In this document: piece after piece, positions 20,891 through 44,366 of the stretch
Position numbering within the stretch: position 1 is the stretch's first letter
Layout: every line of letters starts with the position of its first letter
NCBI RefSeq assembly: GCF_964204645.1
Contig: NW_027437435.1
Location: 62,001 to 126,000, forward strand
Direction: 5' to 3'
Length of the DNA stretch: 64,000 bases
Origin: Tubulanus polymorphus
Lineage: Eukaryota; Animalia; Nemertea
The notes under the pieces: model-generated
Seen by the model: only the letters and a program-made list of their open reading frames with translations
Databases searched by the model: none
What the model was told of the DNA's origin: nothing
Made by a program: the position numbers and the translations under genes

Positions 20891-21310
20891 TTTAGCAACA
20901 CTAATCTGACAGCTAAGCTCTAAAATAGATATTGAAAAATGGGTATCAAAATAATCGACAGAATCTTGCGATTCTGAATTTTGTATTTATATTCAAGTAT
21001 TATAAGTTTTATAAATCAATATGTTTGTGTTTTTTTTTTTATTAACTAAAATATTGTCTGAACCTATTGGAGTATTAACATGTTCATGCAAGCTGTTACC
21101 TTCCTGGCAGGTATGACCAGTCAAGGGTATCGCAAACAAGCGAACTTGTCATTTCTTGAGATCGACAATCTGTCGTTCTGAGTAATTATTTATAATTTAT
21201 AACAATGTGTAATTAACAAGTTTGTACCAACAATTAGCAGGTTTGGCATTGGTTACCACCAACAAGGGTGATCCAAACCTTAGTTACCGTGGGCAAAGTC
21301 ACGGAACAGA

Positions 21311-21373
21311 CCAATCAGGGTTATGGTATTTTTGAGGTATAAATAGTGGACGAAGGGCAGCTGAGGTCACTTT
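21311..21373 (+). promoter_or_regulatory. LTR Pol II core promoter: CCAAT (21311), TATAAATA (21338-21345), Inr TCACTTT with predicted +1 at A21369
   Basis: TATA starts 31 nt upstream of the A in a YYANWYY initiator. The same layout is in the 3' LTR (TATA 30852, Inr 30881). Confidence 0.8.
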
Positions 21374-21441
21374 ATGATGAACCTCGCTTTAAGGAATAAA
21401 TCTGTGTATATTTTAATCGTCTGCTCTTCGTCAAATTACAG
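21368..21441 (+). repeat. LTR internal 74-bp repeat copy 1 (R1), with AATAAA, followed by splice donor CAG|GTATGT
   Basis: Exact copy at 21860-21933, and at 30882-30955 and 31367-31440 in the 3' LTR. AATAAA at 21395-21400; GTATGT starts at 21442. Confidence 0.93.
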
Positions 21442-21859
21442 GTATGTGTAATAAGTTTTATAATATTTTATTAAGTCATATTCTATGGAAATATTGACTA
21501 GGCCTAGGATGTACTTTATTTAATAATATTACTTATTAAGTATGGCCGAATACATGGTGTTTTAATATAATAGTTGAAATAATATTAATCAATTATACTA
21601 GAGCAATAGTATGTGTTTAAATAGGTTAGATGTCTAGATGTCTTGAGCAGTTATGTTCTATTTTAATTAACTTGGCCGCCATTTTTGGCAAGTAATCAAT
21701 GAGAATTACGGCCAGAATATGCTCGATATCAGAGAACATTAGTTTCGTATTTAAGTATTATGAAATAAGTCGACAGTATACTAATCATTAAGATAAACAC
21801 GTTTTATATTTAATCTGTATCATTTATACTCATATATCATCACATATCTATTAATGTAG

Positions 21860-21933
21860 CACTTTATGATGAACCTCGCTTTAAGGAATAAATCTGTGTA
21901 TATTTTAATCGTCTGCTCTTCGTCAAATTACAG
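21860..21933 (+). repeat. LTR internal 74-bp repeat copy 2 (R2), ending in acceptor-like TCTGCTCTTCGTCAAATTACAG|G, followed by a GT-rich U5
   Basis: Identical to 21368-21441. AATAAA at 21887-21892. Downstream GGTCTTGCGTTTGTAGTTGTC resembles a polyA downstream element. Confidence 0.93.
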
Positions 21934-22015
21934 GGTCTTGCGTTTGTAGTTGTCTTAGCTAGAACTACCGAAAGTTACTGAGGAATACATCTATCCAAAC
22001 TTTCTATCATTAAAA

Positions 22016-22033
22016 TGGTGGAGAACCCAGCTT
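22016..22033 (+). promoter_or_regulatory. Primer-binding site, probably tRNA-Ala
   Basis: TGGTGGAGAA begins 1 nt after the 5' LTR and is complementary to the ...TTCTCCACCA 3' end recalled for animal tRNA-Ala(AGC). The match beyond 10 nt is not verified. Confidence 0.65.
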
Positions 22034-22042
22034 CGAATACCG

Positions 22043-23326
22043 ATGCCACAACCATCTAACTACCGTACGATCGTAACAAGACAACAAACGAACCAAGTTC
22101 GGCAAAACGTTGAAAACCCAGTATTGATTCCGCTATACGAGCCGCCGAGAGATATTCGACAAATTGTAGTTCGCGAGGAGGACGAGGAGGTACATCTGGC
22201 AGAAATCGACCAGGTGGATAACGGTATAGACATTAACGAAAACCTAGAGGGTAACATGCCTTATAAACTCGACCTTCCGGGTTACGACCACAGTCGGCCT
22301 ATCAAAAGTTGGCTGAATGACTTTGACCGTTGGGTCCAAGCGACAAATATACCGCTCGAGCAGCAAACCACAGCCCTAATACTGCGTTTATCTGGTTCCT
22401 CCAGATCCGCCATAGATACATTGACTCTCGAACAACAGAACGATTTGGAGGAAGTAAAAAAATGCTTGGAAAATAAATTTAAACCTATAAGAGACCCAAT
22501 GAGAGGTCTAGATAAACAACAAGCAGGCGAGTCCGTACAGGCGTACATGGACCGAGTAGAAAGGGCAGCTAGCCAGTCAGAATTTACGTTGACATGTGCT
22601 ATCGAACAGGCCATAGATTGCCTTAACGACTCTATTAAACCTTTAGTCGCAACTCATTGCCCTGATACATTTGATAAATTAAGGAAAATTGCAATGAACG
22701 CAGAATCAGCAGCAGGGGGTAAAATTACCGCGACTTGTAGTCTCACCACAGCGGTCGACAAACTAACTAGTCATTTGGAAAATGTACAATTGCGACCGGA
22801 CAATAAGGTGTGTGCATGTCAAGTAAACGCGATAACCGATAGTAAAAGTGACAATGGATTTAATTATGCGAATAGACAGAATTATCAAACACAGCAACAA
22901 CAACAGTCCTGGTCTCCTCAATTCGTGCCACAGCCACAACAGTTTTGGCCGCAGCAGCAGTTTTGGGCGCCACAACATCAGCCGCAGTTCCAGCAACCGC
23001 ATTTCCAGCAGCCGCAGTTCCAGCAGCAGCAGCAGCAGCAGCAGCAATTCCAGCAGCCGCAGTTCCAGCAGCAGCAGCAGCAGCAGCAGCGGTTCCATCA
23101 GCCGCAGTTCCAGCAGCAGCAGCAGCAGCAGCAGCAGTTCCAACAGCAGCAGTTCCGGCAACAGCACTACAGGGGACACCAGCGGCATAGAGGGAACAGC
23201 AATAGGAGAAATCAATGGTCGCAGCCAAATGGACAAAATAATTCAGGTAAACGGGTTCCATTATGTTATACATGCAATACCCCAGGTCATATATCTCGAA
23301 ATTGTCCGAACTCAGGTCAGAAATAG
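22043..23326 (+). CDS. gag: Gag with long Q/P/F-rich low-complexity tract and C-terminal CCHC zinc knuckle
   Basis: 427-aa ORF directly after the PBS. Capsid-like helical region (WLNDFDRW...GESVQAYMDR) and zinc knuckle CYTCNTPGHISRNC. Confidence 0.93.
   Translation: MPQPSNYRTIVTRQQTNQVRQNVENPVLIPLYEPPRDIRQIVVREEDEEVHLAEIDQVDNGIDINENLEGNMPYKLDLPGYDHSRPIKSWLNDFDRWVQATNIPLEQQTTALILRLSGSSRSAIDTLTLEQQNDLEEVKKCLENKFKPIRDPMRGLDKQQAGESVQAYMDRVERAASQSEFTLTCAIEQAIDCLNDSIKPLVATHCPDTFDKLRKIAMNAESAAGGKITATCSLTTAVDKLTSHLENVQLRPDNKVCACQVNAITDSKSDNGFNYANRQNYQTQQQQQSWSPQFVPQPQQFWPQQQFWAPQHQPQFQQPHFQQPQFQQQQQQQQQFQQPQFQQQQQQQQRFHQPQFQQQQQQQQQFQQQQFRQQHYRGHQRHRGNSNRRNQWSQPNGQNNSGKRVPLCYTCNTPGHISRNCPNSGQK
22890..23166 (+). 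repeat. CAG-rich coding repeat (QQPQF plus Q-run units) in gag
   Basis: Repeated CAGCCGCAGTTC followed by CAG runs. Confidence 0.95.
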
Positions 23327-26300
23327 GGGTGCGAGCCTGTCCAAGAGAATCCAACTATGGACGGGCACCCGAAGGTTGAAGTTGCGTTCCTGGCGACATT
23401 AGAGAAAAATGTTGCCACAGTATTTGTGTCGGGGCACAGAATTAACGCATTGCTTGACACAGGTGCTGGTATTTCTTGTATATCATTGTCATGTCTGAAC
23501 AAAACTAAATTTGCTAATGAAACGTTGTCACCGCCTGAGATAAAAGAAGTAGTTGGCGTGAGTGGAAGTATATTGTCGGTCCTAGGTACGGTAAACCTGC
23601 CCCTAATCTTCCCGGGTATAAAGACGCCAGTCGAGCAAAAATTTCATGTATTTCAACATCTTCATCAACCCCTTTTACTAGGTTTAGATTTCATAACGGA
23701 GAAGCAGGTAATAATTGATATACCCAATAAAGTCTTTAGTATGACGAGTGTTGAGGATAAAGTTTTGAGCATGGAGATCCATACTAAGTTTGCACGCACG
23801 ATTAAACCAATCAAATTGAAAGCTAAATCAGAACTTCAAATTCCTGTGAAAGTTTCTAAAACTCTTGATAAACAAACTGTACTTTTGTCACCAATACAAG
23901 AATTGGTGGCTATGAATTATACAGGTGCCCGTTGCTTAGTAACAGTTAATAATGGTAGAGCAGTAATGAGATTATTGAACCCAACTAAATCAGTTATAAA
24001 AATTCCAAAAGGGCAATCTATAGCATATATATCGGATGTTGAAGAGTCATCAATTATGTCACTTGACGCAGAAGAAACTGTTTCTGTAAATAATATTAAT
24101 GATGAAACACCGGATTATGATACTAGCGAAGCTATGAAGTTCCCTCCTACGGGACACACTCCAAAAGTTGAAGATTTACAATTTGACTTATCTAATTCGG
24201 ATCTAAATAATGAACAAAAAGAATTGTTACTAGCTTTCCTTCATAGGAATCGTGATAGATTTTCTTCCAACTTGAATGAATTAGGGCATACTTCCATATA
24301 CGAACATACTATTGATACTGGGGATAGTCCCCCGGTTTGCCAGAGGCCATATCGCTGTAATGGGATAATTAGAGAAGAGCAAGATCGTCAGATAGACGAA
24401 ATGCTCAAAGCCGATGTTATAACTACATCAAACTCACCGTTTAATTCACCTGTTGTGATGGTAAAGAAAAAGTCAGGCGAATATCGCTTCGCGGTGGACT
24501 ATCGTAAATTAAATGCTATTACTAAATCGGTTTCTTACCCACTACCACGAATTGCCGACGTTGTTGACTCCGTAGCAGAGTCTAAAGCAAAATTATTTAC
24601 AACTCTCGATATGACCTCCGGTTTCTGGCAAATTAAGTTAGATCCGGCTACTATGCATAAATCTACCTTTGTTACTCAAAATGGCGCCTACATGTTTAAA
24701 AGACTACCATTTGGTCTTAAGAATTCACCCATGGCATTCCAAATGACCATGAATGAAGTCCTCCGTGGCTATCATTGGAAATTTTGCTTAGTGTATGTAG
24801 ACGACATTTTGGTATACAGTAGAGACTTTACAGAACATTTACAGCATTTGCAACTGGTTTTTAACCGTTTACGACAAGCTAATATGACATTGAAGCCGTC
24901 CAAATGTCACTTTGCTCAAAGCAGTGCCCCATATTTGGGATATATTTTCACCAAAGATGGTGTAAAAGCAGATCCGTCGAAATGTCAGGCAGTACAAACG
25001 TTCCCAGTTCCTAGAAACGTGAAAGAACTGCGCTCATTCTTGGGCTTGTGTAACTTCTATCGCCGTTTCGTCTGGAATTATTCGCATATCGCTACTAAAT
25101 TGACTCCATTGTTACAGAAAGAATCCAAATTTATTTGGACTGATGAGCATCAGGAAGCATTTCTACAATTGAAAGAGTGCCTATTATCGCCACCCATTTT
25201 AGCCTATCCTGATAATGATAAAGAATACTTACTCTGCACTGATGCGTCTGATACAGCGGTAGGTTATATACTGGCTCAGCGCGACGATAATGGTCGCGAG
25301 CGCGTTATTTGTTATGGTGGTCGTGCTCTTTCTGCCCAACAACGTCGTTGGGATACTAGGGAAAAAGAAGGTCTAGCTATTGTGCTAGGAGTAGACGCAT
25401 ATAGGGAATATTTGGCCCCTAAAAAGTTTACTATTTATACTGATCACCAGTCCTTGACTATCTTAGATAATGCTAAGGATATGACCACGAAAGTTGCTAG
25501 GTGGGCAACAAAGTTACAAAATTATGAATTTGACATAATACATCGCCAAGGCAAGAAAAATGATAATGCGGATAGCCTATCTAGACGCGAATACCCTACT
25601 GTCATTGATACTAGTGAACATGACGACTTCCCGGCGCCTATTGATGTAGTGTCGCCAGGAGTACATGAACTATTCGCAGATCTGTTTCAAAAGGATACAG
25701 GTGAATCACCGCCGGCCGGTAACCATACATCGTATGGATGGCGGCAAGCTGAGTTTCAGTACGATACTAAGGGTTGCGAGACTGAAAGTACACGAGACGA
25801 TATGGAAGCTGAGGTTCCTGTTTGTGTAGTGGATGATTTAGATATCGCTACCACTCAGCGTTCTTGTTCAGATTGCTCGCCTATCATTCAATATTTGGAA
25901 CATGACATCTTACCCCAGGATCGGAAGTTGGCCATCAAAGTGCAATGGTCGTCTCAATGCTTTCACATGTACAAAGGAGCGCTTTACCGTAGTTATCAGC
26001 GTAACCAGTCTCCTAGAGGTCTACCTTCGGTTACTCAGCTGGTAGTACCGTTAAGCTTGAGACCAGACGTGCTGTTCGCGTATCATGATTGCAGGGCTGG
26101 AGGAGGCCATGTCGGTATCCAGAAAGTATACGATGCTATGAGGCAAAAGTATTACTGGAAAAATATGTACCGAGATATTACTCAATATGTTTCTTCATGT
26201 ATGTTATGTCAGAAAGCTAAAGCTCCTACTCACCAAAAATCACCACCTCTCACTAACATGCCTATAACCGACACATTTGCTAGATGGCATATGGATTTCC

Positions 26301-27469
26301 TCGGTCCACTTCCGGAGGGACCAACTGGTGAGAAGCATATCTTATTAGTCGTAGATAGTTTCTCTAGGTGGCCCGAAGCCTTTGCGCTTAAAACTCAGGA
26401 AGCTTCAGAAGTAGCCAAAGTTTTGTACGATCAGATATTCGCTCGATACGGTGCACCAGGTGCATTAGTTTCAGATCGAGGTGCAAACTTTCTATCCAAA
26501 CTGGTAACAGCAGTTTGTGAGCTGTTCCAAGTCACACGTACTCGTACATCAGCTTACCATCCTCAAACAAATTCTACCTGTGAACGGACCAATAGAACCA
26601 TCGCTCAGATGTTCCGCACTTACGTCAAAGAAGATCAAACAGATTGGCCCGACGTGTTGTCGAGTGTTCTTATGGGTCTTAGGTCGTCAGCTAGCCAATC
26701 GACGGGATTTTCCCCCTTTCAGGTGTTATTTGGCAAAGAAATGAACCTACCTATTGATACCTCATTAATACCCAAGGATAACCTCCCTACCACGGTCACG
26801 GACCATATAAATCAATTGAAAGATCGCTTGTCTATTGTTAAGGATATAGCTAAATCCCAAAATGAGACCGCACAATTACGAAACAAAAACTTACATGATA
26901 AGAAATCAGCCACACCTACGTTTAAATTACATGATAAAGTATTGCTTAAGAATAATAAAGTGGGGAGAGGTAAATCCAAGAAATTTACTACGAAATATAA
27001 AGGGCCATACTATATTTCTCAGTATGGTAAGAATTTCACGTATCAATTGCGCTCTTGCGAAGATGATGCACCTTATAAGTCGCCACTTAATGCATCACTG
27101 CTGAAACCATATGTTGATAGTGGAAAATTTCCGCATTTGCGAAAAACCGCAGCGGATGGGGATAAGCCACAAACCGATAATACCAATAGTATCCCTGCAC
27201 CTAGCAGCAACAAAGTTCAGGCCAGGCCCAACACTAATGTCACTGCGAAAGATGGCAAAATGTACAAAATTGACAAAATATTAGGCACGAAATTCAAAAA
27301 TAATGTAAGAGTATTCAAAGTTCAATGGTCAGACAAAAACTCAACAAACTCATGGGTCAATGAGGACGATGTCACTCAACTCGCAATCGACAAATATTTT
27401 GAAACCCACACCAGAAAAGGCACAGGCCGAAAAAGAAAAAGACAATCAGTTTTCAAATCGCGGCGCTAG
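23327..27469 (+). CDS. pol: Pol polyprotein: aspartic protease, RT, RNase H, integrase, chromodomain; same frame as gag (first ATG 23357)
   Basis: LLDTGAG (PR), LPFGLKNSP and YVDDIL (RT), TDASD (RH), H..GGGH..CMLC zinc finger, WHMDFLGP/LVSDRG/CERTN (DDE), GPY motif, and YKIDKILG..FKVQW..NSWVNEDDV (chromodomain). No stops in 1370 aa. Confidence 0.97.
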   Translation, partial: GCEPVQENPTMDGHPKVEVAFLATLEKNVATVFVSGHRINALLDTGAGISCISLSCLNKTKFANETLSPPEIKEVVGVSGSILSVLGTVNLPLIFPGIKTPVEQKFHVFQHLHQPLLLGLDFITEKQVIIDIPNKVFSMTSVEDKVLSMEIHTKFARTIKPIKLKAKSELQIPVKVSKTLDKQTVLLSPIQELVAMNYTGARCLVTVNNGRAVMRLLNPTKSVIKIPKGQSIAYISDVEESSIMSLDAEETVSVNNINDETPDYDTSEAMKFPPTGHTPKVEDLQFDLSNSDLNNEQKELLLAFLHRNRDRFSSNLNELGHTSIYEHTIDTGDSPPVCQRPYRCNGIIREEQDRQIDEMLKADVITTSNSPFNSPVVMVKKKSGEYRFAVDYRKLNAITKSVSYPLPRIADVVDSVAESKAKLFTTLDMTSGFWQIKLDPATMHKSTFVTQNGAYMFKRLPFGLKNSPMAFQMTMNEVLRGYHWKFCLVYVDDILVYSRDFTEHLQHLQLVFNRLRQANMTLKPSKCHFAQSSAPYLGYIFTKDGVKADPSKCQAVQTFPVPRNVKELRSFLGLCNFYRRFVWNYSHIATKLTPLLQKESKFIWTDEHQEAFLQLKECLLSPPILAYPDNDKEYLLCTDASDTAVGYILAQRDDNGRERVICYGGRALSAQQRRWDTREKEGLAIVLGVDAYREYLAPKKFTIYTDHQSLTILDNAKDMTTKVARWATKLQNYEFDIIHRQGKKNDNADSLSRREYPTVIDTSEHDDFPAPIDVVSPGVHELFADLFQKDTGESPPAGNHTSYGWRQAEFQYDTKGCETESTRDDMEAEVPVCVVDDLDIATTQRSCSDCSPIIQYLEHDILPQDRKLAIKVQWSSQCFHMYKGALYRSYQRNQSPRGLPSVTQLVVPLSLRPDVLFAYHDCRAGGGHVGIQKVYDAMRQKYYWKNMYRDITQYVSSCMLCQKAKAPTHQKSPPLTNMPITDTFARWHMDFLGPLPEGPTGEKHILLVVDSFSRWPEAFALKTQEASEVAKVLYDQIFARYGAPGALVSDRGANFLSKLVTAVCELFQVTRTRTSAYHPQTNSTCERTNRTIAQMFRTYVKEDQTDWPDVLSSVLMGLRSSASQSTGFSPFQVLFGKEMNLPIDTSLIPKDNLPTTVTDHINQLKDRLSIVKDIAKSQNETAQLRNKNLHDKKSATPTFKLHDKVLLKNNKVGRGKSKKFTTKYKGPYYISQYGKNFTYQLRSCEDDAPYKSPLNASLLKPYVDSGKFPHLRKTAADGDKPQTDNTNSIPAPSSNKVQARPNTNVTAKDGKMYKIDKILGTKFKNNVRVFKVQWSDKNSTNSWVNEDDVTQLAIDKYFETHTRKGTGRKRKRQSVFKSRR

Positions 27470-27574
27470 GTGTCATTCGAGCATCTTTGTTGCAACATTG
27501 CAATCGCCTCATTTCAACTCCGCTTGGGAGCAATTTAGATCAGAACTTAATTTTATGTTGAAAGTTTCTGTGCT

Positions 27575-30097
27575 ATGGGTCACCGGCCGGGACCTCTTTT
27601 ACTTATCAATACTAAATTTTGGCCTCTCTTCTTCTTTTCTCCTGTAGGCGAATCTTCTCAAGTTGGGCACTGCCTCATAATAGTTGCTTTGTTAACGGTG
27701 TTTTCATTAATACCCGCAGCCGCCGCTTTGAATCAGCCCATCAATTATGGTGTAACTTTCGGAAAAGTGGGCACAGTAAGTCAGTCCAACGAATATTGGC
27801 TACATACATTCTGTATTGTATTGCCTCGAGAAATGAACATGGCCCAATTCGGCGATTGCCACGACCAGAGTCCTATATGCGTATTGCGACGCAAGACAGC
27901 TATTCACCTAAACGAGTTACAAACGCGACTAAATACTCATGTCCGCTACGTTAACCAGTATGTTCACGATTTAATTCCGGAACACGTCAGCTTAAATAAA
28001 TCTAGAAGTCGCCGCGGAGCCCCTTTAGGCTTCATTGGCAGTCTTTCAAAAACTCTATTTGGTACCGCGACAATGGATGACGTGGAACTTTTAGCCTCGC
28101 ATATCAATGCTTTGCAGCAACGTTCGTCAGAATTAGCTACTGCTTTAACGCAGCATGGCGATCATTTGTCCTCATATACGAGGAACATGCTTAAAAGAAC
28201 TGATAAGGCGTTCAAGGGTATAAAGGCGAACCATAGAGCGATATCGGATTTATATACGCAATTTCAAGCAACCACCAATGATATTTTAGCAGCTTCAGCT
28301 AGCATTGACAAAATTTACGCGACTTACGCGGAAACTAGCTTAGAAGCAGAACTGCACTTATCTGAGTTTAAAGCGTCGGTAGCTCAATTATTACGTGGGA
28401 AATTATCACCAAGTCTCATTCCTATCCAGGTCCTACAAGACGCCATGAACCAGATAAGCGCAGTTCTTATTACGAAACATCATAATTTCAAATTAGTCAA
28501 AGTAGCACCCACATTTTATTATGACCATGGAAGGCTTTTGATGTCTAGGAAAGGACCAGAAATATTTGTTTCGGTTAAGTTTTTAATTACGCCCTTAGCG
28601 GCTCCACTTCATATGTTTCGGGTGAATTCATTCCCTATGCCTGTCCATGACACTTCGAAGCACTCGACCACAATTGGGAATTTACCAACGTATCTAATTG
28701 TATCAGCGGATGCTCAGTATTATTCAGCTTTTACAGTATCTGACGTGGCCGAATGTCGGCATTATTATAAGCATTGGCTTTGCCCATTTAATCAAGCCTT
28801 GTCGACGGCATCTAGTAAATCTTGTATACTTGCTTTATACTTAGGAGATAAAGATAATATTATAAAGTTTTGCGATTTTAGAGTCAATCTGGATTCAGTA
28901 CGTTCGAAAATTGTCGAATTGGAACCATCCACTTTAGTTTTGTATAACGTACCAAGAATTGCTTTGAAATGTGGCCTTTCGGAAAAGTACGTCGAGGGTT
29001 GTTCCTTTTGTATTAAACACATTCCTTGTTTCTGTCAAGTCAGCGCACCCGGTTTAAAATTAAGTCCGCGTTTAAATTCATGTAGTCAGGGTAAGAATAT
29101 TACGACAATTCACCCAGTAAATCTGGCCGTTATACAGTCATTTTTTGATATATCTACGCATGAAGCTATTTCTAGTGGGTTAGTCTTAGAAAGACCAGTT
29201 AAAGTGATACCACCTTCGTTTGATATCTATAATCATTCCATGAACAGTCTTATTGCGGATGACGAGAAGCATAGTTTAAGTTTGAAGCGCGTAACTTCTG
29301 CAATTAAAAATGATAGTCGTATATTTAGAACTCTTTCTGAATCTGTAATGGCAGGAGAAGTAGCCATTAACGAGTCATGGCCCAGCAACAGGGACTTAGT
29401 TTCGTTACTGGCCCTTATTTTAGCGAGTACCTTGTTAGCTTTAATAATTATTCAGCAGTACCGTATCACTAAGTTAGCGGGTCTAGTTGCAATTTTACAA
29501 AATATTCACTCTGCTTCAGCAGCTACTATACCACCGGAATTTCGTTACGTGGGTCCTACCTTGGCAACCAAGACTGGGCCACTCGGATGGGAACCTCTTA
29601 TTAGCTACATAACGTCATCTCTTGTCGGAACCTTTACGTTATTAGGCATTTGCACCTTAATCTATTTATTGTATCGACGCTTCCGCTTTACTCCTCATTC
29701 TACTTTAGTCATTGAGCTCTCTGATTCTGTTAGTTGCGTGCAAATTCCCTTAATGAATTTTCAATTGTGCCCAGTGCATTTGTTGGTTTCGATACCTAGT
29801 AAAGTTGATGATGTAGATGTTGAAGGTCACTGCTTTCCCAAATTGATAGGAAAATGGGACAATTTTAGAGTAACCAATAGGTTAAGTCAACAATCTTGGC
29901 TAGTACCGACTTCTGTTAACTTATCGCTGGCACAAGCAAGGGCAGCACGATGTGCATTAAACTGTCCCTTGTCATTTACCATACATTTTGCTTTAGTTCA
30001 CCATGATCGATTTTATATTTTGGAGAGCCCAGCTATAGCGCCAGGTCCGCGTGTTACTTCCAATCATGGACAACTACTCCCTATTACCAACGAATAA
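27575..30097 (+). CDS. env: Env-like class I fusion glycoprotein (baculovirus F / errantivirus Env type); true N-terminus probably supplied by splicing
   Basis: Signal-like LIIVALLTVFSLIPAAAA, furin site RSRR followed by fusion peptide GAPLGFIGSLSKTLFGTATMDDV, heptad region, Cys-rich ectodomain and C-terminal hydrophobic helices. Confidence 0.9.
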   Translation: MGHRPGPLLLINTKFWPLFFFSPVGESSQVGHCLIIVALLTVFSLIPAAAALNQPINYGVTFGKVGTVSQSNEYWLHTFCIVLPREMNMAQFGDCHDQSPICVLRRKTAIHLNELQTRLNTHVRYVNQYVHDLIPEHVSLNKSRSRRGAPLGFIGSLSKTLFGTATMDDVELLASHINALQQRSSELATALTQHGDHLSSYTRNMLKRTDKAFKGIKANHRAISDLYTQFQATTNDILAASASIDKIYATYAETSLEAELHLSEFKASVAQLLRGKLSPSLIPIQVLQDAMNQISAVLITKHHNFKLVKVAPTFYYDHGRLLMSRKGPEIFVSVKFLITPLAAPLHMFRVNSFPMPVHDTSKHSTTIGNLPTYLIVSADAQYYSAFTVSDVAECRHYYKHWLCPFNQALSTASSKSCILALYLGDKDNIIKFCDFRVNLDSVRSKIVELEPSTLVLYNVPRIALKCGLSEKYVEGCSFCIKHIPCFCQVSAPGLKLSPRLNSCSQGKNITTIHPVNLAVIQSFFDISTHEAISSGLVLERPVKVIPPSFDIYNHSMNSLIADDEKHSLSLKRVTSAIKNDSRIFRTLSESVMAGEVAINESWPSNRDLVSLLALILASTLLALIIIQQYRITKLAGLVAILQNIHSASAATIPPEFRYVGPTLATKTGPLGWEPLISYITSSLVGTFTLLGICTLIYLLYRRFRFTPHSTLVIELSDSVSCVQIPLMNFQLCPVHLLVSIPSKVDDVDVEGHCFPKLIGKWDNFRVTNRLSQQSWLVPTSVNLSLAQARAARCALNCPLSFTIHFALVHHDRFYILESPAIAPGPRVTSNHGQLLPITNE
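27608..27648 (+). promoter_or_regulatory. Splice acceptor for env subgenomic mRNA
   Basis: Branch-like TACTAAA (27610), pyrimidine tract CCTCTCTTCTTCTTTTCTCCT and TAG|G at 27645-27648, just ahead of the signal peptide. Confidence 0.8.
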
Positions 30098-30368
30098 TTC
30101 GTTGTTTTCCTTTTTATATGCTACGATTTTGTACATTATGAATATTATGTAACTTTAAGATATCGTACATTAAAAAAGTACGTTTTAAATGTATGTAACT
30201 TTTGCATGTTTACGAATGTTGTGTAACTATAAACTATCACGGAACATTATACATGTATGTAACTATATTTCTTTATATTTGATTGTATCACCAACTATAT
30301 TTGTGTAGGTAATTACGTTTTGCTGGTATTATTTTATATCTCTTACCCATAAGGTAGGGTTTCATTTT

Positions 30369-30405
30369 GCTTTTGAGGACAAAAGCCAACCATAGTGTGT
30401 GAGGA
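30369..30405 (+). promoter_or_regulatory. Pre-LTR hairpin (GCTTTTG-AGGA-CAAAAGC) and atypical polypurine-tract position (AGTGTGTGAGGA)
   Basis: A 7-bp stem containing TTGAGGACAA lies 19 nt upstream of the 3' LTR. The tract abutting the LTR is only partly purine. Confidence 0.55.
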
Positions 30406-31521
30406 TTTAGCAACACTAATCTGACAGCTAAGCTCTAAAATAGATATTGAAAAATGGGTATCAAAATAATCGACAGAATCTTGCGATTCTGAATTTTGTA
30501 TTTATATTCAAGTATTATAAGTTTTATAAATCAATATGTTTGTGTTTTTTTTTTATTAACTAAAATATTGTCTGAACCTATTGGAGTATTAACATGTTCA
30601 TGCAAGCTGTTACCTTCCTGGCAGGTATGACCAGTCAAGGGTATCGCAAACAAGCGAACTTGTCATTTCTTGAGATCGACAATCTGTCGTTCTGAGTAAT
30701 TATTTATAATTTATAACAATGTGTAATTAACAAGTTTGTACCAACAATTAGCAGGTTTGGCATTGGTTACCACCAACAAGGGTGATCCAAACCTTAGTTA
30801 CCGTGGGCAAAGTCACGGAACAGACCAATCAGGGTTATGGTATTTTTGAGGTATAAATAGTGGACGAAGGGCAGCTGAGGTCACTTTATGATGAACCTCG
30901 CTTTAAGGAATAAATCTGTGTATATTTTAATCGTCTGCTCTTCGTCAAATTACAGGTATGTGTAATAAGTTTTATAATATTTTATTAAGTCATATTCTAT
31001 GGAAATATTGACTAGGCCTAGGATGTACTTTATTTAATAATATTACTTATTAAGTATGGCCGAATACATGGTGTTTTAATATAATAGTTGAAATAATATT
31101 AATCAATTATACTAGAGCAATAGTATGTGTTTAAATAGGTTAGATGTTCTTGAGCAGTTATGTTCTATTTTAATTAACTTGGCCGCCATTTTTGGCAAGT
31201 AATCAATGAGAATTACGGCCAGAATATGCTCGATATCAGAGAACATTAGTTTCGTATTTAAGTATTATGAAATAAGTCGACAGTATACTAATCATTAAGA
31301 TAAACACGTTTTATATTTAATCTGTATCATTTATACTCATATATCATCACATATCTATTAATGTAGCACTTTATGATGAACCTCGCTTTAAGGAATAAAT
31401 CTGTGTATATTTTAATCGTCTGCTCTTCGTCAAATTACAGGGTCTTGCGTTTGTAGTTGTCTTAGCTGGAACTACCGAAAGTTACTGAGGAATACATCTA
31501 TCCAAACTTTCTATTATTAAA
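30406..31521 (+). repeat. 3' LTR (1116 bp)
   Basis: Direct repeat of 20891-22014, ending TATTAAA before the AAAA duplication. Confidence 0.96.
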
Positions 31522-34500
31522 AAAAGACGTTTTCGTATCGAATATTCCCCCTATCGGTAAAACGACAATGTCGATGCGTAAAAGCGCTCAAATCGTCAGG
31601 AAAAGCACTTTTCGACGCGAAAACGTAGTTCAGCGCGAGAAAAGACGTTTTCTTATCGAATATTCCCCCTATCGGAAAAACGACAATGTCGATGCGTAAA
31701 AGCGCTCAAATCGTCAGGAAAAGCACTTTTCGACGCGAAAACGTCGTTCAGCGGGAGAAAAGACGTTTTCGTATCGAATATTCTCACTATCGGTAAAACG
31801 ACAATGTCGATGCGTAAAAGCGCTCAAATCGTCAGGAAAAGCACTTTTCGACGCGAAAACGTAGTTCAGCGCGAGAAAAGACGTTTTCGTATCGAATATT
31901 CGCCCTATCGTAAAAACGACAATGCCGATGCGTAAAAGCGCTCAAATCGTCAGGAAAAGCACTTTTCGATGCGAAAACGTCGTTCAGCGCGAGAAAAGAC
32001 CTTTTCGTATCGAATATTCCCCCTATCGGAAAAACGACAATGTCGATGCGTAAAAGCGCTCAAATCGTCAGGAAAAGCACTTTTCGACGCGAAAACGTCG
32101 CTCAGCGCGAGAAAAGACGTTTTCGTATGGAATATTCGCCCTATCGTAAAAACGACAATGCCGATGCGTAAAATCGCTCAAATCGTCAGGAAAAGCACTT
32201 TTCGACGCGAAAACGTCGTTCAGCGCGAGAAAAGACCTTTTCGTATCGAATATTCCCCCTATCGGAAAAACGACAATGTCGATGCGTAAAAGCGCTCAAA
32301 TCGTAAGGAAAAGCACTTTTCGACCCGAAAACGTAGTTCAGCGCGAGAAAAGTCGTTTTCGTATCGAATATTCTCACTATCGGTAAAACGACAATGTCGA
32401 TGCGTAAAAGCGCTCAAATCGTCAGGAAAAGCACTTTTCGACGCGAAAACGTAGTTCAGCGCGAGAAAAGACGTTTTCTTATCGAATATTCCCCCTATCG
32501 GAAAAACGACAATGTCGATGCGTAAAAGCGCTCAAATCGTCAGGAAAAGCACTTTTCGACGCGAAAACGTCGCTCAGCGCGAGAAAAGACGTTTTCGTAT
32601 CGAATATTCGCCCTATCGTAAAAACGACAATGCCGATGCGTAAAAGCGCTCAAATCGTCAGGAAAAGCACTTTTCGACGCGAAAACGTCGTTCAGCACGA
32701 GAAAAGACGTTTTCTTATCGTATATTCCCCCTATCGGAAAAACAACAATGTCGATGCGTAAAAGCGCTCAAATCATAAGGAAAAGCACTTTTCGACGTGA
32801 AAACGTCGCTCAGCGCGAGAAAAGACGTTTTCGTATCGAATATTCCCCCTATCGGAAAAACGACAATGTCGATGCGTAAAAGCGCTCAAATCGTCAGGAA
32901 AAGCACTTTTCGACGCGAAAACGTCGTTCAGCGCGAGAAAAGACGTTTTCGTATTGAATATTCTCCCTATCGGAAAAACGACAATGTCGATGCGTAAAAG
33001 CGCTCAAATCGTCAGGAAAAGCACTTTTCGACGCGAAAACGTAGTTCAGCGCGAGAAAAGACGTTTTCTTATCGAATATTCCCCCTATCGGAAAAACGAC
33101 AATGTCGATGCGTAAAAGCGCTCAAATCGTCAGGAAAAGCACTTTTCGACGCGAAAACGTCGCTCAGCGCGAGAAAAGACGTTTTCGTATCGAATATTCG
33201 CCCTATCGTAAAAACGACAATGCCGATGCGTAAAAGCGCTCAAATCGTCAGGAAAAGCACTTTTCGACCCGAAAACGTCGCTCAGCGCGAGAAAAGACGT
33301 TTTCGTATCGAATATTCCCCCTATCGGAAAAACGACAATGTCGATGCGTAAAAGCGCTCAAATCGTAAGGAAAAGCACTTTTCGACCCGAAAACGTAGTT
33401 CAGCGCGAGAAAAGTCGTTTTCGTATCGAATATTCTCACTATCGGTAAAACGACAATGTCGATGCGTAAAAGCGCTCAAATCGTCAGGAAAAGCACTTTT
33501 CGACGCGAAAACGTCGTTCAGCGCGAGAAAAGACGTTTTCGTGTCGAATATTCTCCCTATCGGTAAAACGACAATGTCGATGCGTAAAAGCGCTCAAATC
33601 GTCAGGAAAAGCACTTTTCGACGCGAAAACGTAGTTCAGCGCGAGAAAAGACGTTTTCTTATCGAATATTCCCCCTATCGGAAAAACGACAATGTCGATG
33701 CGTAAAAGCGCTCAAATCGTCAGGAAAAGCACTTTTCGACGCGAAAACGTAGTTCAGCGCGAGAAAAGACGTTTTCTTATCGAATATTCCCCCTATCGGA
33801 AAAACGACAATGTCGATGCGTAAAAGCGCTCAAATCGTCAGGAAAAGCACTTTTCGACGCGAAAACGTCGTTCAGCGCGAGAAAAGACGTTTTCGTGTCG
33901 AATATTCTCCCTATCGGTAAAACGACAATGTCGATGCGTAAAAGCGCTCAAATCGTCAGGAAAAGCACTTTTCGACGCGAAAACGTCGCTCAGCGCGAGA
34001 AAAGACGTTTTCGTATCGAATATTCCCCCTATCGGAAAAACGACAATGTCGATGCGTAAAAGCGCTCAAATCGTCAGGAAAAGCACTTTTCGACCCGAAA
34101 ACGTCGTTCAGCGCGAGAAAAGTCGTTTTCGTATCGAATATTCTCACTATCGGTAAAACGACAATGTCGATGTGTAAAAGCGCTCAAATCGTCAGGAAAA
34201 GCACTTTTCGACGGGAAAACGTCGTTCAGCGCGAGAAAAGACGTTTTCTTATCGAATATTCCCCCTATCGGAAAAACGACAATGTCGATGCGTAAAAGCG
34301 CTCAAATCGTCAGGAAAAGCACTTTTCGACGCGAAAACGTCGTTCAGCGCGAGAAAAGACGTTTTCGTGTCGAATATTCTCCCTATCGGTAAAACGACAA
34401 TGTCGATGCGTAAAAGCGCTCAAATCGTCAGGAAAAGCACTTTTCGACGCGAAAACGTAGTTCAGCGCGAGAAAAGACGTTTTCTTATCGAATATTCCCC

Positions 34501-37500
34501 CTATCGGAAAAACGACAATGTCGATGCGTAAAAGCGCTCAAATCGTCAGGAAAAGCACTTTTCGACGCGAAAACGTAGTTCAGCGCGAGAAAAGACGTTT
34601 TCGTATCGAATATTCGCCCTATCGTAAAAACGACAATGCCGATGCGTAAAAGCGCTCAAATCGTCAGGAAAAGCACTTTTCGATGCGAAAACGTCGTTCA
34701 GCGCGAGAAAAGACCTTTTCGTATCGAATATTCCCCCTATCGGAAAAACGACAATGTCGATGCGTAAAAGCGCTCAAATCGTCAGGAAAAGCACTTTTCG
34801 ACGCGAAAACGTCGCTCAGCGCGAGAAAAGACGTTTTCGTATGGAATATTCGCCCTATCGTAAAAACGACAATGCCGATGCGTAAAATCGCTCAAATCGT
34901 CAGGAAAAGCACTTTTCGACGCGAAAACGTCGTTCAGCGCGAGAAAAGACCTTTTCGTATCGAATATTCCCCCTATCGGAAAAACGACAATGTCGATGCG
35001 TAAAAGCGCTCAAATCGTAAGGAAAAGCACTTTTCGACCCGAAAACGTAGTTCAGCGCGAGAAAAGTCGTTTTCGTATCGAATATTCTCACTATCGGTAA
35101 AACGACAATGTCGATGCGTAAAAGCGCTCAAATCGTCAGGAAAAGCACTTTTCGACGCGAAAACGTAGTTCAGCGCGAGAAAAGACGTTTTCTTATCGAA
35201 TATTCCCCCTATCGGAAAAACGACAATGTCGATGCGTAAAAGCGCTCAAATCGTCAGGAAAAGCACTTTTCGACGCGAAAACGTCGCTCAGCGCGAGAAA
35301 AGACGTTTTCGTATCGCATATTCGCCCTATCGTAAAAACGACAATGCCGATGCGTAAAAGCGCTCAAATCGTCAGGAAAAGCACTTTTCGACGCGAAAAC
35401 GTCGTTCAGCACGAGAAAAGACGTTTTCTTATCGTATATTCCCCCTATCGGAAAAACAACAATGTCGATGCGTAAAAGCGCTCAAATCGTCAGGAAAAGC
35501 ACTTTTCGACGCGAAAACGTCGCTCAGCGCGAGAAAAGACGTTTTCTTTTCGAATATTCCCCCTATCGGAAAAACGACAATGCCGATGCGTAAAAGCGCT
35601 CAAATCGTCAGGAAAAGCACTTTTCGACGCGAAAACGTCGTTTAGCGCGAGAAAAGACGTTTTCGTGTCGAATATTCTCCCTATCGGAAAAACGACAATG
35701 TCGATGCGTAAAAGCGCTCAAATCGTCAGGAAAAGCACTTTTCGACGCGAAAACGTCGCTCAGCGCGAGAAAAGACGTTTTCTTTTCGAATATTCCCCCT
35801 ATCGGAAAAACGACAATGCCGATGCGTAAAAGCGCTCAAATCGTCAGGAAAAGCACTTTTCGACGCGAAAACGTCGCTCAGCGCGAGAAAAGACGTTTTC
35901 TTTTCGAATATTCCCCCTATCGGAAAAACGACAATGCCGATGCGTAAAAGCGCTCAAATCGTCAGGAAAAGCACTTTTCGACGCGAAAATGTCGCTCAGC
36001 GCGAGAAAAGACGTTTTCTTTTCGAATATTCCCCCTATCGGAAAAACGACAATGCCGATGCGTAAAAGCGCTCAAATCGTCAGGAAAAGCACTTTTCGAC
36101 GCGAAAACGTCGCTCAGCGCGAGAAAAGACGTTTTCGTGTCGAATATTCTCCCTATCGGTAAACAACAATGTCGATGCGTAAAAGCGCTCAAATCGTCAG
36201 GAAAAGCACTTTTCGACGCGAAAACGTCGTTCGGCGCGAGAAAAGACGTTTTCTTATCGAATATTCCCCCTATCGGTAAAACGACAATGTCGATGCGTAG
36301 AAGCGCTCAAATCGTCAGGAAAAGCACTTTTCGACCCGAAAACGTCGTTTAGCGCGAGAAAAGACGTTTTCGTGTCGAATATTCTCCCTATCGGTAAAAC
36401 GACAATGTCGATGCGTAAAAGCGCTCAAATCGTCAGGAAAAGCACTTTTCGACGCGAAAACGTCGCTCAGCGCGAGAAAAGACGTTTTCGTATCGAATAT
36501 TCCCCCTATCGGAAAAACGACAATGTCGATGCGTAAAAGCGCTCAAATCGTCAGGAAAAGCACTTTTCGACCCGAAAACGTCGTTCAGCGCGAGAAAAGT
36601 CGTTTTCGTATCGAATATTCTCACTATCGGTAAAACGACAATGTCGATGCTTAAAAGCGCTCAAATCGTCAGGAAAAGCACTTTTCGACGCGAAAACGTC
36701 GTTCAGCGCGAGAAAAGACGTTTTCGTGTCGAATATTCCCCCTATCGGTAAAACGACAATGTCGATGCGTAAAAGCGCTCAAATCGTCAGGAAAAGCACT
36801 TTTCGACGCGAAAACGTAGTTCAGCGCGAGAAAAGACGTTTTCTTATCAAATATTCCCCCTATCGGAAAAACGACAATGTCGATGCGTAAAAGCGCTCAA
36901 ATCGTCAGGAAAAGCACTTTTCGACGCGAAAACGTCGTTCAGCGCGAGAAAAGACGTTTTCTTTTCGAATATTCCCCCTATCGGAAAAACGACAATGTCG
37001 ATGCGTAAAAGCGCTCAAATCGTCAGGAAAAGCACTTTTCGACGCGAAAACGTCGTTCAGCGCGAGAAAAGACGTTTTCTTTTCGAATATTCCCCCTATC
37101 GGAAAAACGACAATGTCGATGCGTAAAAGCGCTCAAATCGTCAGGAAAAGCACTTTTCGACGCGAAAACGTCGTTCAGCGCGAGAAAAGACGTTTTCGTA
37201 TCGAATATTCCCCCTATCGGAAAAACGACAATGCCGATGCGTAAAAGCGCTCAAATCGTCAGGAAAAGCACTTTTCGACGCGAAAACGTCGTTTAGCGCG
37301 AGAAAAGACGTTTTCGTGTCGAATATTCTCCCTATCGGTAAAACGACAATGTCGATGCGTAAAAGCGCTCAAATCGTCAGGAAAAGCACTTTTCGACGCG
37401 AAAACGTCGCTCAGCGCGAGAAAAGACGTTTTCGTATCGAATATTCCCCCTATCGGAAAAACGACAATGCCGATGCGTAAAAGCGCTCAAATCGTCAGGA

Positions 37501-38327
37501 AAAGCACTTTTCGACGCGAAAACGTCGTTCAGCGCGAGAAAAGACGTTTTCGTATCGAATATTCCCCCTATCGGTAAAACGACAATGTCGATGCGTAAAA
37601 GCGCTCAAATCGTCAGGAAAAGCACTTTTCGACGCGAAAACGTCGTTCGGCGCGAGAAAAGACGTTTTCGTATTGAATATTCTCCCTATCGGAAAAACGA
37701 CAATGTCGATGCGTAAAAGCGCTCAAATCGTCAGGAAAAGCACTTTTCGACGCGAAAACGTCGCTCAGCGCGAGAAAAGACGTTTTCGTATGGAATATTC
37801 GCCCTACCGTAAAAACGACAATGCCGATGCGTAAAAGCGCTCAAATCGTCAGGAAAAGCACTTTTCGACGCGAAAACGTCGTTCAGCGCGAGAAAAGACC
37901 TTTTCGTATCGAATATTCCCCCTATCGGAAAAACGACAATGTCGATGCGTAAAAGCGCTCAAATCGTCAGGAAAAGCACTTTTCGACCCGAAAACGTCGT
38001 TCAGCGCGAGAAAAGTCGTTTTCGTATCGAATATTCTCACTATCGGTAAAACGACAATGTCGATGCGAAAAAACGCTCAAATCGTCAGGAAAAGCACTTT
38101 TCGACGCGAAAACGTCGTTCAGCGCGAGAAAAGACGTTTTCGTGTCGAATATTCTCCCTATCGGTAAAACGACAATGTCGATGCGTAAAAGCGCTCAAAT
38201 CGTCAGGAAAAGCACTTTTCGACGCGAAAACGTCGCTCAGCGCGAGAAAAGACGTTTTCTTATCGAATATTCCCCCTATCGGAAAAACGACAATGTCGAT
38301 GCGTAAAAGCGCTCAAATCGTCAGGAA
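31522..38327. repeat. 118-bp satellite array, middle block (~58 monomers)
   Basis: Same monomer and orientation as the left block. Confidence 0.99.
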
Positions 38328-38695
38328 TACTCGCGAAACTCATAAAAATGAAAAATTAATTCTCACACGCTCGAATTAATTTTTCATTTTTATGAGTTTC
38401 ACTCCTAATTCAAGTAGAAATTGTAATTATTTTTATGTTTTTCATTTTTTACTCACCCGCCCGTTCAACCTTAAGCTTGAAAGCCTATTATCCCTATTAC
38501 TCTTAAAATATTCATATATATGAATAACATTTAAATCATTGAACTTCTAAAATCAATTTTAATAAAAAATATAGTATTAAAATGGAAGCAAATAAGTACT
38601 ACTGCCCAACATGTAATATCGATATAGATAAATCCCAAAAAGCAAGACGCAATAAAACTAGAACACATTTAGAGAATAAATTGAAACTAGAATAT
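38328..38695 (+). repeat. Left TIR remnant (368 bp; outer 94 bp missing)
   Basis: Reverse complement of 56256-56623 with 3 substitutions seen. Contains a perfect 28-bp stem with 10-nt loop (38335-38400) and the first 38 codons of pPolB. Confidence 0.93.
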
Positions 38696-41600
38696 AAAGA
38701 TGATATATTAGAAACTAAATTAGAAGAATTAAAGGATGAAAAAGAAACATACAAATGTGATACATGTAATCAATCATTCAGCGATAAAAGATATTATAAT
38801 GAACATTTAAAATCTAAAAGTCATATTAGAAATAAGAATAATGATATTTTAGGTGAAGATTATTTTGATAATGATAACGATAAGAAACAGAAGACAATTA
38901 AAAGAATAAAAAATAAATTAAACAATAAAAGACCATACATGGAAGATGTAAGAAATTATATTAATTCATTAGATAATAAAAAAGATATAGAGATAACCGA
39001 AGCATTTAAAAGTGATATTGGTCCAGCAGCTATCGAGTTTAAATTTCATAAAGGAAAAACAATAGAAGAAAATAAAAAACATTTAGAAAATATGAAAGAA
39101 ATAATAAAAATGATTACAAACGTAGAATATCCAAAAATTAGTATATCAGTTAAAGTAAAGTTTATAAAATCTGAAGATAAACCAATATATAATATAAATT
39201 CTCATTCACAACATATTATATCTAAACAACATATAGATGATAAATTAAATAAATGTTATAATGAAATAAAAACTAAAATAGAAGAGAAATATTTTGAAGG
39301 ATCTGGTTTAATATTTGATGAGATAATATTTATAACTTTACATGTTTATAACACAAAATATAATAAGTTAACTAAATCAAAACCAATTGATGAAAATAAT
39401 TTATCATATTATAAAGATGATAGTATAAATGGAACAAGTTATATTAAACTACCATTTAAAACTAATGGTGTAATAAATATACAAAATTTTGATAATAAAT
39501 GTTTTATATGGGCTATAATAAGTTGTTTACACCCAGTTGAAGATTATAAACAACATAGTTTTAGATTAACTCATTATAAACAATTTGAAAATAATTATAA
39601 GATAGATAAGTATCCTGTTAGAATTAAAAATATTCCAAAAATAGAAAGAGATAATAATATAAAGATAAATGTATTTGATTTAATCAAATTACCAAATACA
39701 AAAGGAAATAATATTAAACATTATACATTAGAACCTTTATACCTATCAAAAGATTATGATTCAAATGATGTTATAGATATACTATATTATGAGAATCATT
39801 ATATGTGGATTAAACAAATAGATTTATTTTTTAGAACAGAAAGTGATCACCATAATAAAATATATCTATGTAGAAAATGTTTACATAAATTTAGTAATGA
39901 AAGTACATTATTAAATCATAAACAACTATGTGATAATCATGATTATTGTAAATTAGTTTTACCAAATGAAAAGGATAAAATATTAGAATTCAAAAAAAAT
40001 GATTACAAAAATAAAGTACCATTTGTAATATATGGAGATTTTGAATCATTAAATAAAGAATTAACAGATAAAGATAGAAAAGATATATATTATAAAAGAA
40101 AGAAATTAAATTCTAATGAAAGTGATTATTCAGATGAACCACCAATAACAAATACTATTAAAAAGATTCATCAATCAGCTGCAGCTTTCGGGTTATATAT
40201 TAAATCTGATTATCCAGAACTAATCGAAAGTGAATATTATAATTATAGAAATGAAAATGTTATCAATCATTTTTGTGACTTATTAATTGAATATGAAATA
40301 AGATTTAGTAAATTATTGAATACAAATATAGAAATTATAATGACAGAAGAAGATAAAGAAGTATTTGCGTTTGCAGATAAATGTTATTATTGTGAAAAGA
40401 TATTTAATTATAAAGATAAAAAAGTAAGAGACCATGATCATTTGAATGGAAAGTTTAGAGGCGCTGCACATGAGAATTGTAACTTACAAGCTAAGAAAAT
40501 TAACTTTATACCAGTTATATTTCATAATCTATCAGGATATGATGCACATTTATTTATCAAACAGCTATGTTATAAAATAGAAGAAATCAATAATGAAATA
40601 GAAATATTAAATTCAAATAGATCAAAAGATAAAATACCAACTTATAAATTTAGAATGTTAGCTAAAACATCTGAGAATTATATATCATTCCAATTTGGTT
40701 GTCTAAGATTTATAGATTCATATAGATTTTTAAGTAGTTCATTAGATAACTTATCAAAATCATTAGTTGATGATGAATTAAAGATATTAAAAGAATATGA
40801 CCCAAATAATGATGATTTTAAATTAATGAGATATAAAGGAGTAATTCCATATTCTTTCTATAAAAATCATAATGATTTTAAAATAACTGAATTATTAAAA
40901 GAACAATTCTATGATGAATTAAAAAATGAATATGTTAAAGATGAAGTCTATAATAGAACATTGAATATTTGGAATCATTTCAAAATAGAAAATCACGGGC
41001 AATTAGTAGATTTATATTTAAAATCAGATGTATTATTATTAACCGATATATTCGAAAGGTTTAGAGATGTAAACCTAAAATATTTCAATATTGATCCTTG
41101 TCATTGTTATTCATCACCAGGATTAACATGGGATTGTGGATTAAAATTTACAGATATAAAAATGGATTTGTTAACAAATATAGATCAATTACTATTATTT
41201 GAAAAATCTATAAGAGGAGGTGTTTCAGGTGTATTGGGTGATAGATATTTCAATGTAAATGATAATCCTGGATATAAATTATTATACATAGATGCAAATA
41301 ATCTTTATGGTTGGGCAATGATGGAACCACAACCTTATGGGATGTTTGAAATAACTGAAGTTTTACAAATTGATAAATTTGATTGGAAGAAAAGAATCCT
41401 AGATATTGCAGATGATTCAGATATTGATTACTTCTTCGTTGTAGATTTAGAATACCCTGAAAATATTAAATTCAAATCTAGAAATCTAGCATATTTTCCC
41501 GAACATAAAACTGTTAAACATGAAGAATTATCAAATTATCAAAAAATAATTAAACCTGATAATCATATTCATACTGAAAAGTTAATGGTAACTCAAGAAG

Positions 41601-42616: not shown

Positions 42617-42644
42617 TCAATTTCAATAAAAATTTGTATAATAA

Positions 42645-42986
42645 ATGGAGAGTAAACAAGTACACAGTGAATTCTTAGATAGAATTAAAGATACTTCAAG
42701 CGTCAAATCTGTAGATTATAAATTTAAAAAACTAACTGAGTTAACAATTCACAAGAAATATTTAATTACTAACATTGAAACAATTACTAATAAATATGGA
42801 GATAAATTAGTAATTCATTTAGAATATGAAGGATTAAAAGGAAATAAATATAAATTCAGAACTTATTTACCAGATAGATTTCATAGATTATCAAGTGAAG
42901 ATTTAGAAGAATTATGTTCTGGAGATTTCTATTTCGTATACAAAGGTAAGAATGAAAAAGGGCACCATGAAATAGATTTCGAATAA
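42645..42986 (+). CDS. Small Maverick protein, possibly OB-fold ssDNA-binding
   Basis: 113-aa ORF with TAAATG start directly after pPolB. Beta-rich pattern (TNKYGDKLVI, TYLPDRF, FVYKG). The fold is a guess. Confidence 0.5.
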   Translation: MESKQVHSEFLDRIKDTSSVKSVDYKFKKLTELTIHKKYLITNIETITNKYGDKLVIHLEYEGLKGNKYKFRTYLPDRFHRLSSEDLEELCSGDFYFVYKGKNEKGHHEIDFE

Positions 42987-43003
42987 GAAAATATGTAAAA
43001 TAA

Positions 43004-43759
43004 ATGGTGGAATTAAAAGAATACAGAATATTTGTTGATTCTAGAAAACTTACAAATTATAAATCTCATAATTTATTAGTACAATTAGATAGATAATTTA
43101 AGAATTGTGTAGATTTAAAATTAGTTAATATAAGTTTATGTAATTCTTTTCATAATATATCGAATAAAAGTCTTGATCATTTAGCTTTTAAAATTTATGT
43201 TAGAAATTTGAATAAATGGTTTCATCTTTATCTAAAACCAGGATTATATAATTTAGAAACATTAGCGCAAGAAATTAATAAAAGAGCTCGTTTAAAAATG
43301 GGCTCAGCTGCTCGATTTGAAATTAAATTCATCAAAAGTGATAGTTCGAATAAAATAAGAATAAAGTTAACTAATGAACAACATAGATTTCTAGTAAGAA
43401 AACCTTTAGCTAAACTGTTTGGAATTCTTCCGGATAGACATTATTCAAATATTGATACTTATACAAATATAATACCTTTTACACATTTTTATATTTATTG
43501 CAATTTAATCGATCCTACAAAAACATTTGAAGCAACTAAAGATACAACATGTAATTCTAGTATATTAAATATTTTACCATTAAAAAATGTTAAACAATTT
43601 GGAACGCAAATAAATTATGATTTAGCTGAATGTGATTTCAAACCTTGTATTCCTCAATTTAATAATTTTAAATTAGAAATAAGAAATCATAATGGATACT
43701 TAATTGATTTGAATAACTTTCCTGTAATTTATGAATTAGTTATAAGATGTAAAGAGTAA
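43004..43759 (+). pseudogene. Minor capsid (penton-like) gene with premature TAA at 43094-43096
   Basis: TAAATG start at 43004 is in frame with ORF 43208-43759. Motifs NSFHNI, KPGLYN, FYIYCNLI and LEIRNHNGYLIDLNNFPV resemble Polinton pentons. Confidence 0.7.
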
Positions 43760-43775
43760 TTTTTCACCTATATAA

Positions 43776-44342: not shown

Positions 44343-44366
44343 ATGCATAATTTTTTTGTTAAATAA

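Follow-up and report, generated by a model that had tools for sequence, protein, structure and literature searches.

A likely self-renewing intron in the LTRs of an errantivirus-type element from the nemertean Tubulanus polymorphus

Both long terminal repeats (LTRs) of a retroelement from the nemertean Tubulanus polymorphus contain what is likely a self-renewing intron, that is, two copies of a likely exon 1 placed around a likely intron. The second copy (R2) probably arises anew from spliced RNA when the element is reverse transcribed, and this would put the intron back into both new LTRs. The element lies in a 64,000-nt stretch of DNA (assembly GCF_964204645.1, contig NW_027437435.1, positions 62,001 to 126,000 of the forward strand), which was analysed as a whole and is referred to here as the window. 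Introns are expected to be lost when spliced RNA is reverse transcribed, and the available text of PMC8557442 treats Penelope-like elements as an unusual exception.

The element is 10.6 kb long (20891-31521) and lies within an array of a 118-bp satellite, with a target duplication of 4 nt (AAAA). Only 2 substitutions, a duplication of 7 nt and 1 nt in a T run distinguish the two LTRs, and the insertion is therefore young. The order of the pol domains (protease, reverse transcriptase (RT), RNase H, integrase), the two direct LTRs, the primer-binding site after the 5' LTR and the target-site duplication are those of Ty3/gypsy elements (Metaviridae), and the third open reading frame (ORF) is related to baculovirus F, as in errantiviruses of the F type. 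This ORF matches PF12259 with an E value of 7.9e-10 (38.4 bits, cut-off 24.1). The positions of all features are collected in Table 1.

Table 1. Features of the element and of its 5' LTR (positions in the window)
Feature	Position	Strand	Remarks
5' LTR	20891..22014	+	1124 nt; ends TTTA...TAAA; preceded by AAAA duplication; within 118-bp satellite
TATA box TATAAA	21338..21343	+	30 nt upstream of repeat start
U3 arm	21349..21360	+	predicted 12-bp pairing with R1 21421-21432; only in U3-containing RNA
R1, predicted exon 1	21368..21441	+	AATAAA at 21395; branch-like site, pyrimidine tract, CAG end
Spacer, A+T-rich	21442..21859	+	last letters differ among copies
Predicted 492-nt intron (spacer and R2)	21442..21933	+	donor GTATGT, acceptor TACAG; splicing putative
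R2	21860..21933	+	exact copy of R1; AATAAA at 21887; likely landing site of strong-stop DNA and likely 3' cleavage site
U5	21934..22014	+	start G/T-rich
Primer-binding site	22016..22033	+	starts TGG
gag	22043..23326	+	zinc knuckle, glutamine-rich tract; TAG end in frame with pol
pol	23327..27469	+	protease, RT, RNase H, integrase, chromodomain-like tail
env-like ORF	27551..30097	+	Baculo_F; strong acceptor-like AG ends at 27647
3' LTR	30406..31521	+	R1 30882-30955, spacer 30956-31366, R2 31367-31440, U5 31441-31521

A sequence-only reading had proposed that each LTR is built as U3-R1-spacer-R2-U5. This layout and its coordinates hold in both LTRs: R1 and R2 agree at 74/74 letters, and they are separated by spacers of 418 nt (5' LTR) and 411 nt (3' LTR) with a G+C content of 26%. 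The repeat recurs in the 3' LTR at 30882 and 31367, and only these four copies were found in the window. Both of its edges fall on transcription or splicing signals, as judged with consensus motifs for donors, TATA boxes and introns. An Inr-like site has its A at 21369, 1 nt after the repeat start, and the motif TATAWAW, which occurs twice in the 1124-nt LTR, is found near either repeat only before R1, with none in the spacer. At the other edge, R1 runs into the donor CAG/GTATGT (21441/21442), which carries 8/9 consensus letters and is the best of the LTR; in 9515 nt, no more than 3 donor-like 9-mers reach 8/9 consensus letters or better. The probability that both repeat ends meet TATA and donor signals by chance is about 1e-5 to 5e-5, a rough, post hoc estimate.

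R2 ends in an acceptor-like TACAG/G (21933/21934). The predicted intron has the marks of a U2-type intron (GT donor, branch-like site, 65% pyrimidine tract and AG, by consensus), and there is no AG between 21885 and 21933. Since cleavage is predicted inside the 74-nt unit, the unit, which extends from the start site to the donor, is better called exon 1 than R. A repeat with these limits looks like a cDNA copy of a first exon, and R2-U5 would then read as an exon-exon junction. The letters of the predicted spliced junction are identical to those of the genomic R2-U5 border, and therefore short reads across 21441^21934, a check that the sequence-only reading had proposed, cannot reveal splicing.

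Two other explanations for parts of the LTR were tried and dropped. The sequence-only reading had named TGTAG/C at 21859 as an alternative acceptor; as a family feature this site was rejected, as two letters are missing in 29/39 reads and also in contigs of four further runs (X1-X4, see below). A tandem-LTR origin of the spacer was rejected as well, since its local alignments to U3, U5 and the 3' UTR (both strands where run) were no better than those of shuffled sequences (218-278/300). Given these shuffle-level alignments, an 18-nt likeness between U3 and the spacer was treated as chance.

The prevalence of the double layout was surveyed in five (X1-X5) of ten sequencing runs, all from one organism and none on record as RNA; the other runs (X6-X10) were left out, as each contained at most 0.02 of the words looked for. 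X5 consists of raw DNA reads from a different sample and study, while X1 consists of contigs that may come from the window's own sample. In X5, the depth was 38 at the spacer edges and 48 in U5 (ratio 0.80), so about 80% of the LTR depth comes with a spacer. Four of 218 reads skip 492 nt and run from U3 through one repeat into U5, which identifies single-repeat LTRs; their implied depth is 11-18 of about 48. Roughly three quarters of the LTRs thus have the double-repeat layout, and the rest have a single repeat. This speaks against the case that the sequence-only reading had named as fatal, namely that most copies have one R with no donor. Contig depths in X1 were 387 for U3, 369 for the spacer and 360 for U5, and the flow through the repeat was balanced (754 versus 756), as it should be for DNA.

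The layout is also found in a diverged subfamily, whose differences were assigned, unphased, by matching read counts. About 5% of the spacer letters (17 substitutions and 5 indels), 7% of the U5 letters and 8% of the gag letters differ, and the order spacer-R2-U5 is still present. One contig with the spacer end, R2 and U5 of this subfamily was present in both X2 and X3. Among the 32 gag differences listed (40 of 118 rows), 13 are synonymous and 4 are of the CpG type, a weak sign that the subfamily is a separate replicating lineage. Because the double layout is the majority form and is common to the diverged subfamily, a one-off duplication in the window copy is excluded.

Conservation of the layout in other copies and in related families had been named as a check. 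Within the species the layout is the majority form and extends to copies that differ by 5-8%. Among loci from relatives it was seen in 0/151. A direct pol scan of viral contigs gave no relatives, and alignment scans gave 79 + 72 loci with 25-56% identity. These loci held 17 exact repeats, none of which ended at a donor. The result says little, because the contigs of these relatives are mostly short and distant.

The two repeat borders differ in their variability. At the spacer-R2 border, 20/39 reads share one form and 9/39 have a T-to-G change immediately before R2; the window copy shows a third state in each of its LTRs, in which 2 letters are added, the last of them a G. The U3-R1 border has one state, and no variant is listed for it among about 45-50 reads in the complete variant table. 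In HIV-1, according to the available text of PMC12172438, copying of the cap adds a G directly upstream of the start site in about 5% of cycles, and small slips cluster at the U3-R junction. If the borders are read as in HIV-1, strong-stop DNA would end at the 5' edge of R2, not of R1. One detail counts against this: with a copied cap, transcription would begin at C21368, which lies 1 nt from the A of the Inr. The repeats also share a change: G>T occurs at 21393 (5/43 reads) and at 21885 (6/48 reads), the same offset in R1 and R2, with a chance probability of about 0.014 for this one unphased site. In the diverged copy, R2 has two further substitutions and a 3-nt gap with no listed counterpart in R1, and we infer that these R2-only changes arose after insertion.

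Three runs, X2, X3 and X4, behave as if they contained RNA. They are termed RNA-like only by their unbalanced depth and their three graph shapes, which under one sample label are unexpected for DNA of one individual; they are not recorded as RNA. Contigs cannot show the end or the level of an RNA, and the evidence from these runs is suggestive only. In X4, R1 and the spacer lie in one contig with a depth of 113.5 (spacer alone about 99-111), U3 has a depth of 139.3, and U5 drops to 5.8, 24-fold below U3. This suggests molecules that continue past R1, cross the spacer and terminate in R2, as the sequence-only reading had predicted. In X2, the depth of the repeat (82.2) is higher than its inflow (53.3) and its outflow (47.5), as if molecules both began and ended inside it. 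The spacer in X2 (16.6) is below the U5-gag segment (30.9), which indicates many 5' ends without a spacer; the spacer amounts to only 45% of U3, which counts against a simple model. X3 contains a single U3-R-U5 contig (depth 126), and the 5' half of the spacer is absent from this run, so most U3-bearing molecules in it skip the spacer. This path may reflect a single-repeat copy that is expressed, RNA cut in R1 or a 3' copy that is spliced. The claim that 3' ends lie inside R2, past the spacer, fits the depths in X4; the path in X3 stands against it.

Taken together, we propose the following cycle. Transcription would start at 21366-21369, as indicated by the TATA box, the Inr-like site and the repeat edge. 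At the 5' end of the RNA, the donor after R1 would be spliced to the AG that ends R2, giving an exon 1-U5 leader. At the 3' end, the RNA would pass through R1 and the spacer and be cleaved in R2 before the AG, as X4 suggests. Strong-stop DNA would then land on R2, to judge by the border variation, and copy spacer, R1 and U3. Each new R2 would derive from an old R1, which would keep the two equal, and one shared change was seen. The two ends of the RNA would likely be treated differently, since a cap ahead of the donor and more donors downstream, in gag (22189, 22213 and 22250), are found with the 5' copy alone. A cap favours splicing of the first intron. The gag donors could define the exon that follows R2 and could silence its poly(A) site at the 5' end alone.

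Loss of the intron would go in one direction only: strand transfer to R1, cleavage in R1 and a repeat deletion would each leave a single-repeat LTR. For the intron to persist, selection in its favour is therefore probably required as well. The scheme is leaky, as seen from the single-repeat LTRs present as DNA and the spacer-free path in X3. In this respect the mechanism of the sequence-only reading has to be qualified; the majority layout, the diverged subfamily, the R2 border, the shared change and X4 all agree with it, and its cycle is the only reading that meets the geometry, the border variation, the shared change and the X4 depths.

One rival is an ordinary LTR without splicing, in which transcription starts at R2, and R1 and the spacer form a long U3 left by an old duplication. 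It accounts equally well for the depths in X4 and X2 and for the variable spacer-R2 border. Nevertheless, we consider it unlikely, as the only nearby TATAWAW precedes R1 and none lies in the spacer, R1 ends exactly at the best donor, and the spacer lacks homology to U3 and U5 and is thus not left over from a tandem LTR. R1 should also drift if it were passive, but it has 1 change, the shared one, against 3 substitutions and a gap in R2. Passive 110-bp repeats in SNV were deleted at 41% per cycle, according to the available text of PMC3187697. The same border and depth data bear on a rival in which RNA does start at R1 and is reverse transcribed unspliced, with R1-spacer-R2 as a long R. R2 would then come from a rare spliced template, and the donor would serve mainly U1-mediated control of polyadenylation or a translated mRNA. 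Retroviruses package unspliced RNA, and some molecules in X2 bear the spacer. The foamy virus donor in R, which controls poly(A) choice (available text of PMC3694450), also favours this rival. It predicts errors at the U3-R1 border, however, and two independent changes were found at spacer-R2 and none at U3-R1; this placement of the transfer errors speaks against unspliced RNA with a long R as the template. The low spacer depth in X2 relative to U5-gag points the same way, and we regard this rival, too, as improbable.

Less probable still is a recent one-off template-switch duplication in the family that has no function and is being lost. Single-repeat LTRs do exist (the 4 reads in X5), and the spacer-free path in X3 is strong, as such a duplication would predict. 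The double layout, however, prevails in two samples and also occurs in the diverged subfamily, and the listed gag differences (13/32 synonymous, only 4/32 of the CpG type) likewise stand against it.

The self-renewing intron resembles several known systems in part. No description of a duplicated exon, or of an intron, in an LTR was found in the literature covered, which excludes most subscription papers. Foamy viruses have a single R and are not known to have an acceptor in the LTR, hence no intron would be rebuilt in them. Intron gain by segmental duplication reportedly involves duplication of an AG/GT. The foamy virus LTR is similar in that its major splice donor lies in R and that U1 binding and a different fold at the 3' end decide the use of the poly(A) site, and it differs in that the donor is upstream of the poly(A) signal (available text of PMC3694450). 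In the intron gain described by Hellsten et al. 2011 (available text of PMC3265369), a sequence that ends in AG is the end of the exon in the first copy and the acceptor in the second, a dual use also proposed here. That gain is a single genomic event, whereas here the spacer lies outside the duplicate and the copy is likely renewed through RNA. In Penelope-like elements (D. virilis Penelope; Chlamys-3_cRei), a spliceosomal intron of the 5' leader inside the terminal repeat survives retrotransposition, as is proposed for the present case. Deletion of the Penelope intron abolished the reporter protein, a proposed selective reason for keeping it (available text of PMC2377424), and the significance of the introns kept by Penelope-like elements is called unknown in that of PMC8557442. 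These elements carry pseudo-LTRs and a GIY-YIG endonuclease and lack tRNA-primed strand transfer, whereas the present element has an rve integrase and true LTRs; the likeness is confined to the retention of a leader intron. The descriptions available in PMC8557442 and PMC2377424 contain no duplicated exon 1.

With regard to its relatives, the element is consistent with the 'ancient' errantiviruses of the F type described by Chary and Hayashi (eLife 2026, available text of PMC13524379), with which it shares the gag-pol-env Ty3/gypsy layout and a Baculo_F-type env. The main text of that paper, as available, contains 0 matches for 'splic' and 1 for 'intron', and the internal structure of the LTR is apparently undescribed there. 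A chromodomain-carrying errantivirus clade found in Cnidaria, Mollusca and Annelida is reported in the same text. The pol tail of the present element did not match Pfam Chromo; in a pairwise comparison it shares 27% identity with the tail of a relative that carries PF00385 (E 7e-07). Long composite proteins (36-45%) aside, identity to the pol relatives is 49-58%, and the named ones among the close relatives are from molluscs (Pinctada, Mytilus and Haliotis, 49-56%).

We lean slightly towards the view that this is a general route by which LTR retroelements can carry a spliceosomal intron, in which the 3' splice site and the poly(A) signal lie in exon 1 itself and reverse transcription rewrites this exon behind the intron in each cycle. 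If so, the errantivirus would exemplify the route in an animal and in an element with an envelope gene, and traces of the mechanism would be visible at the population level. A route within ordinary LTR strand transfer would alter how U3, R and U5 are defined and annotated. The retroelement would gain a host-like spliced leader with fewer ATGs (3 in the predicted spliced leader of 182 nt versus 18 in the unspliced leader of 674 nt), and solo LTRs would be a concrete source of new introns and promoter-exon units. Self-renewal also predicts that R1 and R2 pair by subfamily.

As to how R1 might be passed over at the 3' end, a helix between the U3 arm, which lies between the TATA box and the start site, and the pyrimidine tract of R1 could form at the 3' end only and mask R1. 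We regard this model as a lead only. The predicted helix has a pair probability of about 0.65 and is borderline, being matched in 137 and 91 of 2000 shuffles; 6 other segments of the element show stronger pairing with R. The fold that includes U3 is likewise borderline against shuffles (z -1.78), and it is the only one to be so: shuffles fold as well as R1 taken from the start site and as R2 in its contexts (z 0.81, 1.73 and 1.54).

Several further observations were made on the element. The LTR ends (20891-20894 and 31518-31521) read TTTA...TAAA, not the usual TG...CA, and owing to an A run the boundary is uncertain by about 1 letter. The primer-binding site is presumably tRNA-Ala-like; a search gave no confirmation of the tRNA. 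The TAG of gag (23324-23326) is directly in frame with pol, suggesting stop-codon read-through or use of an internal ATG. Upstream of the zinc knuckle, gag contains a glutamine-rich repeat with a period of 15 bp (22898-23197). The donor-like site in gag at 22250/22251 is in phase with the strong env acceptor at 27647/27648 (95% pyrimidine), and from this donor and acceptor pair a spliced env mRNA is likely. In X2, the leader contig ends at 22249, and the depth beyond drops about tenfold.

The surroundings of the element are repetitive. The 118-bp satellite array extends over 1-20890, 31522-38327 and 56624-64000, with copies about 95% alike. Of the X5 reads that leave the LTR end, 12 enter the 118-bp satellite and 14 enter other, mixed flanks. 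The same satellite also holds an 18-kb A+T-rich element (38328-56623) with terminal inverted repeats of 368 nt, presumably Polinton/Maverick-like; 3 of its 11 ORFs scanned match a Pox_A32 ATPase, an rve integrase and an endonuclease VII.
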